A stretch of 64,000 bases of DNA from a virus. The stretch lies in the UHGV virus genome UHGV-0312576; one strand, given 5' to 3'. Position 1 is the stretch's first letter; each line of letters starts with the position of its first letter. This document shows positions 38,435 to 39,755 of the stretch, in pieces. The translations under genes and the position numbers were made by a program. Under the pieces are notes generated by a model. It made no database searches and was not told the origin of the DNA. It saw nothing but the letters and a program-made list of their open reading frames with translations.

Positions 38435-39538
38435 TTAAGCTAATATTCTTCGCATCATATCTACGAAACCTGAAATATCAGTAAAATAATTAGGATATGC
38501 TGCTTTTAATGTATCAAAGGATGTTGCCGACACAAGTACAACATCTAAATTTGGATTATTGATTTCTTCGATTTTGTTATACACATTAGTTGCAAGTTCA
38601 ACTTGCGACTTGAGAAATGAATTTATTTTTAATAATTTTTTCTTATAATTTAGCTGTAAAACATAATATCCATTTTTTTTAATTTTAGTGTTTTCATTTA
38701 CATGATTTATTGCTACAGATAAAGCACTCAATCTTGATACGATATATAGCCTTTTATCTATTTCTCTGATTTCAGATATGAGTGTGTTAAAATCATCAAT
38801 GGTATTTGGAGCTATAGGGGTTCCCTCCATTTTTGCAAATACGGAAGATACAAGAACGAAAAACCTTAATATATCTTCATCTCCAAGACTGGCCTTTAAC
38901 TGTGATTTTGTATAAATCCCCATCATTTCTACAGCCGTTGCCCATGTATGTTGGAGTTTTGTGCGGAACTGTATTTCAATAAACATATTTTTATTATAAG
39001 TCTCTTTTGTGTCGCTATGGAACTGATAAACAATATGATAAGACCTATACCCTGATTTCTTAGGGGATTGAATATAGTCATCCTCTCGCTTGATTATATG
39101 ACGTATTCGAGAAGATTTGTATTTATTCAGTGCATCGTATACCTGTTCTATGGTGTCAACAATAACTCTACAACCACCCAAATCTTGCATTCGATATAAA
39201 TTCATATCGGGAAATCTCTCAAGTTTCCCAATAATTGATTCTAGCCGTTTAAGCCGTTGGACAACAATAGCATTAGGATTACGTAATCTAAGATTACTTG
39301 CTATAACTTGTAGAGGGTACGCATGTGCAGAACGCCAGTTATTTACTATTTCCAATGCAGCATAACGTTCCTCTGGTTCAATTGTGGGGATAGCGATGGT
39401 CTTGCCAGCGTTATTAATTTCTTTTTTTGAATATTTAGGTGTTTCCCACTTTTCTATAGATAGTTGATTGTTCATAGAATTTTCCCACTCTTTTGTAAGG
39501 TTTTGTATAATTATATCATAAATATCGGTTTTTTGCAT
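38435..39538 (-). CDS. RelA/SpoT-homologue (RSH) nucleotidyltransferase-domain protein; small alarmone synthetase or toxSAS/CapRel-like
   Basis: 'DLGGCRVIV', 'DYIQSPKKSGYRSYHIVY' and 'IEIQFRTKLQHTWATAVE' match the (p)ppGpp-synthetase fold (DxxGxRxI...GYRSLHxxV...EIQIRT..WA). Start trimmed to MQKTDI, with a GGAGGA RBS 7 nt upstream. About 150 aa of extra C-terminal sequence. Confidence 0.8.
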   Translation of the reverse strand: MQKTDIYDIIIQNLTKEWENSMNNQLSIEKWETPKYSKKEINNAGKTIAIPTIEPEERYAALEIVNNWRSAHAYPLQVIASNLRLRNPNAIVVQRLKRLESIIGKLERFPDMNLYRMQDLGGCRVIVDTIEQVYDALNKYKSSRIRHIIKREDDYIQSPKKSGYRSYHIVYQFHSDTKETYNKNMFIEIQFRTKLQHTWATAVEMMGIYTKSQLKASLGDEDILRFFVLVSSVFAKMEGTPIAPNTIDDFNTLISEIREIDKRLYIVSRLSALSVAINHVNENTKIKKNGYYVLQLNYKKKLLKINSFLKSQVELATNVYNKIEEINNPNLDVVLVSATSFDTLKAAYPNYFTDISGFVDMMRRILA

Positions 39539-39554
39539 TACAATTCCTCCTATT

Positions 39555-39755
39555 TTAATCAAAATATCCAAGGGTTTCTTGAAAAATAGATTCCAATTTC
39601 TCTTTAAGAACATGTTTGTCTGTCTTGTAGGCATCGATTTCAACAGTTACCTTAAGGCCAGGGAATTCAATTTCATTCTCTGGTTTATTATTACGTAAAG
39701 TCATTCCTTCCTCATCAAATACAAATTTTTGTGGTATTACTTGTGTTTTGGTCAT
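39555..39755 (-). CDS. small ORF (66 aa) tightly linked upstream of the RSH gene; candidate partner (antitoxin or regulator)
   Basis: Its stop codon lies 17 nt before the RSH start, with the RSH RBS between them. No recognisable motif. Confidence 0.45.
   Translation of the reverse strand: MTKTQVIPQKFVFDEEGMTLRNNKPENEIEFPGLKVTVEIDAYKTDKHVLKEKLESIFQETLGYFD

Follow-up and report, generated by a model that had tools for sequence, protein, structure and literature searches.

A predicted CapRel-type fused toxin–antitoxin gene carried by a temperate phage of gut Lachnospiraceae

The locus and its genes

The DNA analyzed here, a 64,000-nt stretch of UHGV virus genome UHGV-0312576, is hereafter called the window. 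Our subject is a minus-strand gene for a RelA/SpoT homologue (RSH), the small open reading frame (ORF) that lies immediately upstream of it (orf66), and the sequences that bound the two (Table 1). The mechanically called ORF of the RSH gene begins farther upstream with a TTG (39643), which gives 402 aa and an overlap with orf66. We place the start at an ATG that is preceded, with a 6-nt spacer, by the sequence GGAGGA. This choice was made because of this ribosome-binding site (RBS), because an identical 367-aa protein exists in the databases (P0001), and because the N-termini match at three related loci (L001, L004, and L046; L numbers denote loci with homologues of one of the two genes or with related sequence). 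In close relatives, the ATG start is preceded by a similar RBS. The translation contains LGGCRVIV, SGYRSYHIVY, and IEIQFRTKLQHTWATA, and some 150 residues (216–367) extend past the synthetase domain.

Table 1. Features of the CapRel locus (window positions; residue numbers refer to the 367-aa protein)
Feature	Position	Strand	Details and basis
CapRel-family fused toxSAS toxin–antitoxin gene	38435..39538	-	367 aa plus stop codon; ORF, RBS, profile, phmmer, Foldseek
toxSYNTH (pyrophosphokinase) domain, residues 34–215	38894..39439	-	Carries R95, D119, R124, Y164 (G-loop), E188, Q190
Alpha-helical "anchor" linker, residues 216–280	38699..38893	-	Predicted helices 221–238, 250–264, 266–278
Pseudo-zinc-finger-like sensor/antitoxin domain, residues 281–340	38519..38698	-	Beta 290–297, beta 302–308, alpha 310–325, beta 331–338
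YPNY (YXXY) autoinhibitory motif, residues 348–351	38486..38497	-	TAT CCT AAT TAT read in sequence, within AYPNYF
RBS of CapRel gene (GGAGGA)	39545..39550	-	5' edge of inserted cassette; sequence
Intrinsic terminator of CapRel gene	38397..38423	-	10-bp perfect stem, 7-nt loop, T6; starts 11 nt after stop codon
Single-gene "moron" insertion, ~1.2 kb	38333..39541	-	Extent by comparison with related phage lacking the gene (L041)
orf66, conserved small acidic phage protein (pI 4.9)	39555..39755	-	First gene of leftward operon, divergent from Ku-ligase
Conserved promoter-like/regulatory motif GGAGAATAACTATAT	39789..39803	-	Upstream of orf66; sole candidate signal upstream of orf66-CapRel unit
Second motif copy GGAGAATTATATAT	38346..38359	-	Between CapRel terminator and Ant-like gene

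Identification of the RSH protein as a fused CapRel

A first-pass annotation of the window had named the protein a RelA/SpoT homologue on the strength of its synthetase motifs, and this was borne out by the Pfam model RelA_SpoT (PF04607), which matches residues 94–209 with E = 5.6e-21 (score 75 bits, cut-off 27), with the catalytic residues kept. The same annotation had compared the overall layout to CapRel, a fused toxic small alarmone synthetase (toxSAS) in which a C-terminal domain acts as sensor or antitoxin. Full-length matches to CapRel(SJ46), and a defense-candidate family that the two proteins share, uphold that comparison. When the protein was searched with phmmer against all PDB chain sequences, the best two matches were the structures of CapRel(SJ46), 7ZTB and 9ERV (E = 3e-40), with window residues 34–360 aligned to SJ46 residues 13–364, thus covering the whole C-terminal extension; the next sequence matches, RelQ and RelP, have E = 1e-13 or weaker and span residues 86–206 only. 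A tblastn search of a collection of deposited phages likewise returned the SJ46 gene as the best match (33% identity over 90% of the query), and a pairwise alignment with its product gave 36% identity over 338 columns.

The key residues of CapRel(SJ46) were defined experimentally (PMC9712102), and the pairwise alignment assigns each a counterpart in the window protein. R79 and R116, which coordinate adenine, correspond to R95 and R124; the G-loop tyrosine Y155 corresponds to Y164; V338, L339, A341, and A351 of the autoinhibition interface correspond to V334, L335, S337, and A347; and the YXXY motif Y352-P-N-Y355 corresponds to Y348-P-N-Y351, with AYPNYF identical in the two proteins. All of these positions except that of A341 are invariant in a 10-sequence alignment spanning SJ46 and a 41%-identical Oscillospiraceae homologue, and most are also invariant in 58 family members. 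R95, D119, R124, Y164, E188, and Q190 do not vary in either set. Within the motif, the 58 sequences agree fully at P349, N350, and Y351 and to at least 90% at Y348, and the whole motif is invariant in the set of 10.

An AlphaFold2 model of the RSH protein, built on the 58-sequence alignment (pLDDT [predicted local distance difference test] 81, pTM [predicted template modeling score] 0.75), has after the toxSYNTH core three helices, a beta-beta-alpha-beta unit, short helices with the YPNY turn, and a C-terminal helix. In the published description of the pseudo-zinc-finger domain (pseudo-ZFD) of CapRel(SJ46), three strands form a sheet, a helix sits between two of them, and anchor helices and a C-terminal extension flank the whole (PMC9712102). 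Because the modeled elements match this description, the predicted C-terminal fold has the pseudo-ZFD layout, and the structure prediction that the first-pass annotation had called for thus supports its view of this region. The linker is colinear in the alignments with helices alpha7–alpha9 of CapRel(SJ46), whose role is described in the same paper (PMC9712102). As in SJ46, the zinc finger is a "pseudo" one, since the C-terminal 152 residues (216–367) hold no cysteine; residues 281–340 also lack histidine. Foldseek against the PDB placed 7ZTB_B, 9ERV_A, and 7ZTB_A on top (E = 2e-21 to 2e-20; 351–355 columns, TM score 0.65–0.71, root-mean-square deviation ~10 Å), and all other matches (e.g., RelQ, RelP) cover ~180 columns of the synthetase fold only. 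A deviation of ~10 Å would be expected if the model and the crystal structures differ in domain orientation, closed versus open.

Two computational families also contain the protein. The PADLOC profile PDC-S33, a single-gene phage-defense candidate, matches it at 5.7e-121 (402 bits, profile positions 3–342 of 349) and phrog_4773 at 1e-97; neither family has a stated mechanism, and phrog_4773 is labeled "unknown function". PDC-S33 matches CapRel(SJ46) end to end as well (290 bits, 7e-87), and it matches the unfused PhRel of Mycobacterium phage Phrann over the toxin part only. Because both the window protein and CapRel(SJ46) match end to end, PDC-S33 is effectively the family model of fused CapRels. 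The PDC set consists of candidates collected by guilt-by-embedding in BREX, DISARM, and type I restriction–modification loci (10.1101/2024.01.29.577857), and membership in PDC-S33 therefore lends independent contextual support to a role in defense. The term "PDC-S33" was not found in a literature search.

Conservation along the protein is uneven. Across the 58 sequences, mean column entropy is 1.56 bits for residues 281–330 and 0.65 bits for residues 34–215, making the sensor domain 2.4 times as variable as the enzyme domain and the most variable structured region of the protein. Earlier work on CapRels also found the sensor domain variable and explained this by an arms race with phage triggers (PMC9712102). 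The toxSYNTH domain has an isoelectric point (pI) of 9.7, the same as that of the SJ46 domain, and the C-terminal domain one of 8.1; judged by charge, a toxSYNTH domain this basic is compatible with an RNA substrate, although it is not proof of one. At the N-terminus is an extension of ~33 residues (window 39439–39538, minus strand; helix predicted at residues 6–23) that CapRel(SJ46) lacks; its sequence and length vary greatly among homologues, and some of these are ~25 residues longer. A match to DUF3284 at this end (E = 4e-4) lies under the gathering threshold and was ignored.

A housekeeping small alarmone synthetase (SAS) of the RelQ/YjbM or RelP/YwaC type was considered and rejected. Those enzymes are single-domain proteins of ~200–250 aa; the window protein has 367 aa and an additional C-terminal domain of CapRel type, and its scores against the NCBIfam housekeeping models fall far under their cut-offs (64.5 bits versus 320 for the SAS model GTPPhKinYjbM, 34.5 versus 499 for the Rel model). 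The protein is a fused CapRel-type toxSAS with antitoxin and sensor in cis, and we refer to it below as the window CapRel. The kind itself is not new, and CapRels have already been reported in Firmicutes and in prophages.

orf66, the gene upstream

The first-pass annotation had proposed that the RSH gene and a 66-codon ORF form a tightly linked pair, possibly a bipartite toxSAS–antitoxin system. The ORF is indeed present, and the gap from its stop codon to the RSH ATG, given there as 17 nt, is in fact 16 nt (39539–39554), a trivial difference; it holds only the RSH RBS. That orf66 is a real gene under purifying selection is evident from its 16 homologue clusters (68%–98% identity, 35 invariant columns) and from its ratio of nonsynonymous to synonymous substitution (dN/dS) of ~0.16–0.32. 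The proposed pairing does not survive inspection of related loci. Searches with the RSH protein yielded 39 RSH-homologue loci, besides which L046 was found. Among the 39, orf66 stands upstream of the RSH gene only in L001–L003 (87% identical, with syntenic flanks), and in the other 36 (41%–83% identical) no upstream ORF is coupled to the RSH gene. The combination thus occurs in a single phage lineage, made up of the window, L001–L003, and L046, all with syntenic flanks.

orf66 is also found in other settings. In L041 and L042, it lies 22 nt upstream of the Ant (antirepressor) gene, in L043, L044, and L048 it adjoins the Ku-ligase pair, and in none of these five loci is there an RSH gene within 5 kb of it. 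In two further loci, it is downstream of an RSH gene, at 324 nt in L040 and ~1.6 kb in L036. The distribution of orf66 is therefore independent of the RSH gene.

Searches of Pfam, PADLOC, and NCBIfam with orf66 gave nothing below E = 0.1, and the antitoxin families ATfaRel2, Panacea, and SAH were compared with it through the Pfam scan only. Matches to flgK_1st_1 (E = 0.23) and phrog_16569 (E = 0.049) were rejected as noise. An hhalign comparison with gp30 of phage Phrann, the antitoxin ATphRel, gave E = 0.58 over 1 column. The AlphaFold2 model of orf66 (pLDDT 62, pTM 0.40) is too poor to use. We conclude that the CapRel cassette landed in an operon that begins with orf66, and that orf66 is probably co-transcribed with the CapRel gene but not a component of the CapRel system.

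The CapRel gene and its terminator as an insertion

Comparison with relatives that lack the CapRel gene defines the inserted unit. In blastn alignments of the window with L041 and L042, homology runs from 39804 to 39542 and resumes at 38332, and in L041 the two segments abut. The insert holds the RBS, the CapRel gene, the terminator, and a short leader before Ant. The boundary can be approached from the other side as well: in two relatives that share the CapRel gene, L004 and L036, homology begins at 39550–39558, and in the CapRel-less L041 it ends at 39542. L004, L005, and L036 share only the CapRel gene with the window, at 74%–77% nucleotide identity, and their flanks have no homology to it.

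The perfect terminator reported by the first-pass annotation is present, its stem-loop being followed by TTTTTTGTT, but it does not close the "whole pair" as had been claimed; it is the RSH gene's own. A hairpin and T-run are found 9–38 nt after the stop codon in 39 of 41 homologue loci, with stem sequences that differ between clades. (A terminator scan of the region found three terminator-like sites against 1.3 expected.) Given the clean insertion relative to L041 and the gene's own terminator in nearly all loci, the mobile unit is the gene plus its terminator, which is the classic layout of a moron, inserted at different places in different phages. The GC content of the cassette (27%–38% in 400-nt windows) is not clearly distinct from that of the flanks (~30%–39%), and there is thus no compositional signature of recent acquisition.

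Two copies of a short motif flank this unit. The GGAGAATAACTATAT motif upstream of orf66 is conserved in about five to six related loci, among them L041, which shares nothing with the window upstream of the motif. The second copy, downstream from the CapRel terminator, is present in L001 too, as GGAGAACTATATAT. Each copy precedes a start codon by ~35–45 nt, one that of orf66 and the other that of the Ant-like gene. The pattern GGAGAAT-N0-4-TATAT has two sites in 64 kb against 0.2 expected. A 17-mer search with mismatches gave four sites against 2.8 expected, which is not above chance, so that only the gapped core pattern is enriched. The GGAGAAT-TATATAT motif may be a phage-specific promoter or operator, and the second copy may restore transcription of Ant after the inserted CapRel terminator. 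A scan with the sigma-70 consensus found no minus-strand site in the Ku/orf66 intergenic region; overall it found five promoter-like sites against 15.3 in shuffled sequence and is uninformative for a phage this AT-rich.

The same intergenic region differs between the window and L046, a human-gut metagenome scaffold whose CapRel gene is identical to that of the window. Amid ~8 kb at 98%–100% identity, a 370-bp patch (window 39640–40012) is at 70%–88%. It runs from the start of Ku through the region between the two genes into the 5' half of orf66, and from the alignment it looks like a localized replacement of the divergent promoter/regulatory region.

Comparison with known systems

CapRel(SJ46) (7ZTB, 9ERV; PMC9712102, PMC11578894) is the closest characterized system. 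The two proteins (367 and 373 aa, 33%–36% identical) are colinear over their full length, with the same order of toxSYNTH domain, helical anchors, pseudo-ZFD, YXXY motif, and C-terminal helix; in both, the C-terminal domain lacks zinc-binding cysteines and the sensor is the most variable part, and both are encoded by stand-alone genes of temperate phages. They differ in that SJ46 is an enterobacterial P1-like phage, whereas the window derives from a gut phage of Clostridia (Lachnospiraceae). In addition, the pseudo-ZFD loops of the window protein are ~15 residues shorter, it has an extra variable N-terminal helix of ~20 residues, and A77 of SJ46 has no conserved equivalent (a gap in the pairwise alignment, Val in that of phmmer).

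PhRel-ATphRel (gp29/gp30) of Mycobacterium phage Phrann is a bicistronic toxSAS toxin–antitoxin (TA) that provides prophage-mediated defense against superinfection. The toxin domains are homologous (hhalign E = 3e-9, residues 32–281) and both systems are prophage-encoded, but the Phrann antitoxin is a separate gene downstream of the toxin and that of the window is fused. Even so, gp30 has a weak colinear hhalign match to window residues 292–354 (E = 0.002) that includes the LK..Y/H..YF segment. Because of this alignment and the YXXY motif, the antitoxin function is already accounted for in cis.

The translation-targeting toxSAS TAs FaRel2/ATfaRel2 and PhRel2, and PANGU type I (nucleoid-associated protein [NAP] Pag1A with the GRel toxSAS Pag1B), resemble the window locus in the toxSYNTH fold, the G-loop tyrosine, and a small neighboring gene. 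None of them is among the PDB sequence matches of the window protein, so there is no significant similarity over the full length, and the partner gene that is obligate in those systems is not so in the window family. Pag1B, which makes pppGpp, ends in an acidic domain that mimics DNA; the window C-terminal domain is CapRel-like and not acidic. PANGU type I was rejected for these reasons, with the non-obligate partner, the C-terminal pI of 8.1, and the orf66 pI of 4.9 set against its published description (10.64898/2026.04.06.716658). A bicistronic toxSAS TA (PhRel/ATphRel, FaRel2/ATfaRel2, or unfused CapRel/ATcapRel) was likewise rejected, orf66 being neither co-inherited with the RSH gene nor an antitoxin homologue.

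Proposed mechanism and alternative explanations

We put at roughly 0.8 the probability that this is a CapRel-type module, toxin–antitoxin and phage sensor in one protein, borne as a moron by a temperate Lachnospiraceae phage. By analogy, its function is most likely that of a prophage-encoded abortive-infection or superinfection-exclusion gene. Such a role, exerted through tRNA pyrophosphorylation, was among those offered in the first-pass annotation, and homology to CapRel(SJ46) supports it (PMC9712102).

The steps that follow are modeled on CapRel(SJ46) (PMC9712102, PMC11578894) and on other translation-targeting toxSAS enzymes. In an uninfected lysogen, the pseudo-ZFD would fold back on the toxSYNTH domain, and the YXXY turn, placed between R95 and R124, would block the ATP site. 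When another phage invades, an abundant protein of that phage would bind the variable pseudo-ZFD and hold the enzyme open; for SJ46, the trigger is the major capsid protein or Gp54 (PMC9712102, PMC11578894). The open toxSYNTH domain would then move pyrophosphate from ATP onto the 3'-CCA ends of tRNAs, tRNA charging and translation would stop, and the infection would abort, so that the lysogen population, and with it the resident prophage, would be protected. CapRel(SJ46) shows no toxicity before a phage protein triggers it, and the substitutions Y352A and Y355A each render it constitutively toxic (PMC9712102). Toxicity and neutralization, tRNA pyrophosphorylation, the trigger, and the anti-phage phenotype are known only for the SJ46, Ebc, and Kp CapRels.

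Several points weigh against this interpretation. What is said of substrate (tRNA versus ATP/GTP), toxicity, autoinhibition, and trigger is in every case extrapolated from CapRel(SJ46), a protein of a Proteobacterial phage with only 33%–36% identity, and the docking of YPNY on R95 and R124 is proposed by likeness to SJ46. The pseudo-ZFD is shorter than that of SJ46 by two deletions, of ~6 and ~9 residues, and the interface residue A341 of SJ46 is here a serine. Furthermore, the cassette has no promoter of its own, and in a cassette-less relative this upstream promoter region has the Ant antirepressor gene directly under its control, a hint of transcription early in lytic growth and not in the lysogen. 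It is conceivable, if unlikely, that the phage produces the window CapRel at an early stage of its own lytic growth, to attack co-infecting phages, and keeps its own capsid from triggering the protein. If this is true, self-triggering could be avoided by divergence of the capsid or by a modulator particular to this lineage, such as the acidic product of orf66.

The alternatives assign the enzyme other partners or other purposes. The orf66 product could act in trans on the RSH enzyme, as its antitoxin or its activator, in a bicistronic TA or a sensor–effector pair, for which ATphRel/PhRel, ATfaRel2/FaRel2, and the NAP-plus-GRel pairs of PANGU systems are precedents. A gap that holds nothing but the RSH RBS implies co-transcription and possibly coupled translation, the arrangement is kept in L001–L003 and L046, and orf66 is under selection as a gene. 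Yet the loci with orf66 and the CapRel gene in this order amount to one lineage, nearly all RSH loci do without a coupled upstream ORF, and orf66 itself is found with no RSH gene nearby or on the other side of one. The RSH protein already has a complete cis antitoxin domain with YXXY, and orf66 has no similarity to Phrann gp30 or to families in Pfam, PADLOC, PHROGs, or NCBIfam. The charges do not suit a PANGU-like pair either: the C-terminal domain is not acidic, unlike that of Pag1B, and an acidic orf66 protein would be unexpected for a nucleoid-associated DNA binder. The two-gene reading is largely refuted by the gene distribution, and we regard it as very improbable. An addiction or stabilization module, one that kills cells that lose the prophage (post-segregational killing), strikes us as more improbable again. 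Kinship with toxin–antitoxins speaks for it, as does the archetype's being carried by SJ46, which is classified in Punavirus (P1-like) and maintained as a plasmid prophage. Addiction, however, requires differential stability of toxin and antitoxin, and here both are one polypeptide. The phage encodes an integrase, homologues are found in chromosomal contigs, and the SJ46 protein is harmless before its phage trigger appears.

There is a somewhat better, although still poor, chance that the enzyme is a host-takeover or metabolic alarmone synthetase, one that produces (p)ppGpp or (pp)pApp while its own phage infects, so as to reprogram or shut down host metabolism. The RelA_SpoT nucleotidyltransferase domain is intact and its substrate cannot be read from sequence alone; the toxSAS enzymes FaRel, Tas1, and GRel/Pag1B do make alarmones; and the gene appears to sit in an early operon beside Ant. 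Against this stand the very low scores with the housekeeping SAS and Rel models and the fact that its closest characterized relatives, CapRel(SJ46) and, more distantly, PhRel, all block translation by tRNA pyrophosphorylation. A conserved autoinhibition motif combined with a hypervariable sensor suits a triggered immune switch and not a constitutive enzyme. Both addiction and host takeover had been raised in the first-pass annotation, and we found no specific support for either.

Family evolution and phage context

A database search returned more than 1,600 homologous protein clusters, with 60%–100% identity among those listed. Within the family, the parts of the gene have different histories. 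When window 38435–39538 is compared with L001:6001–7104, the toxSYNTH domain (residues 34–215) is 83% identical at the protein level with a synonymous divergence (dS) of ~2.1, which is saturated, and residues 216–367 (anchors, sensor, and YXXY motif) are 95%–98% identical with dS 0.08–0.18. The contrast in divergence suggests that toxin and sensor modules have been exchanged between alleles by intragenic recombination. A separate case is the P1-like coliphage Escherichia phage vB_EcoM-673R5 (L050), where a CapRel homologue at 2516–3615 gave a tblastn match in three pieces; its annotation has adjacent coding sequences for a RelA/SpoT protein (2516–3064) and a hypothetical protein (3073–3615). 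From this arrangement, it may be either a frameshifted or pseudogenized CapRel or a naturally split toxin/antitoxin version.

The carrier is a temperate phage of gut Lachnospiraceae. Gene products recognized in the window include portal, terminase, and tyrosine integrase proteins, together with an exonuclease, an antirepressor resembling Ant, and a Ku protein paired with an ATP-dependent ligase. Candidate head proteins are encoded at 11394–12488 and 12956–14173. IMG/VR viral contigs of 42–196 kb carry 34 related loci. We place the host among the gut Lachnospiraceae because Enterocloster and Lacrimispora genomes contain homologues at 80%–87% identity; a 5.7-Mb contig of Enterocloster clostridioformis, for example, has 87%-identical homologues. 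A megablast of window 30–50 kb against deposited phages found a single unrelated 1.3-kb match, and thus no annotated close relative.

Other features of the window deserve brief mention. Divergent from orf66, at 39878–41601 (plus strand), lie two genes with a one-base overlap, the products of which are a Ku-like protein that binds DNA ends (262 aa) and an ATP-dependent DNA ligase (311 aa); the pair is conserved in the Lachnospiraceae phages L043, L046, and L048. Phage nonhomologous end-joining pairs of this kind are known in mycobacteriophages Corndog and Omega. Just past the ligase gene is one for a class I S-adenosylmethionine-dependent methyltransferase (41637–42347, minus strand), and further accessory genes on the minus strand encode a metallo-beta-lactamase/beta-CASP nuclease (23787–25235) and an exonuclease (phrog_284; 21887–23134). 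Three tandem tRNA-Leu genes (anticodons CAA, AAG, and TAA) are located at 25569–25818 (minus strand), and phage tRNAs are of interest beside a tRNA-targeting toxin. A separate partial tRNA match (18784–18838, minus strand; model positions 10–63), ~0.9 kb from the integrase gene (19723–20757), could be an attachment-site remnant. An IS110-family transposase of 428 aa (DEDD_Tnp_IS110 and Transposase_20) is encoded at 34310–35596 (minus strand); with a GC content of 43%–47% in phage DNA of 29%–35%, the element is probably a recent insertion-sequence integration. IS110 elements are the "bridge RNA" recombinase family.

Significance

The window does not add a new kind of system, and the potentially new two-gene module with the 66-aa ORF is unsupported. 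What it does add is an abundant clade of CapRels from large temperate phages of human-gut Lachnospiraceae. The fused CapRels that have been studied experimentally are all from Enterobacteria, and a member from a Clostridia phage, with the same switch residues and a shorter, very different sensor, would be well suited to testing how widely capsid sensing and tRNA pyrophosphorylation apply. The CapRel of Lachnospiraceae phages could also contribute to the exclusion of one phage by another in the gut microbiome.

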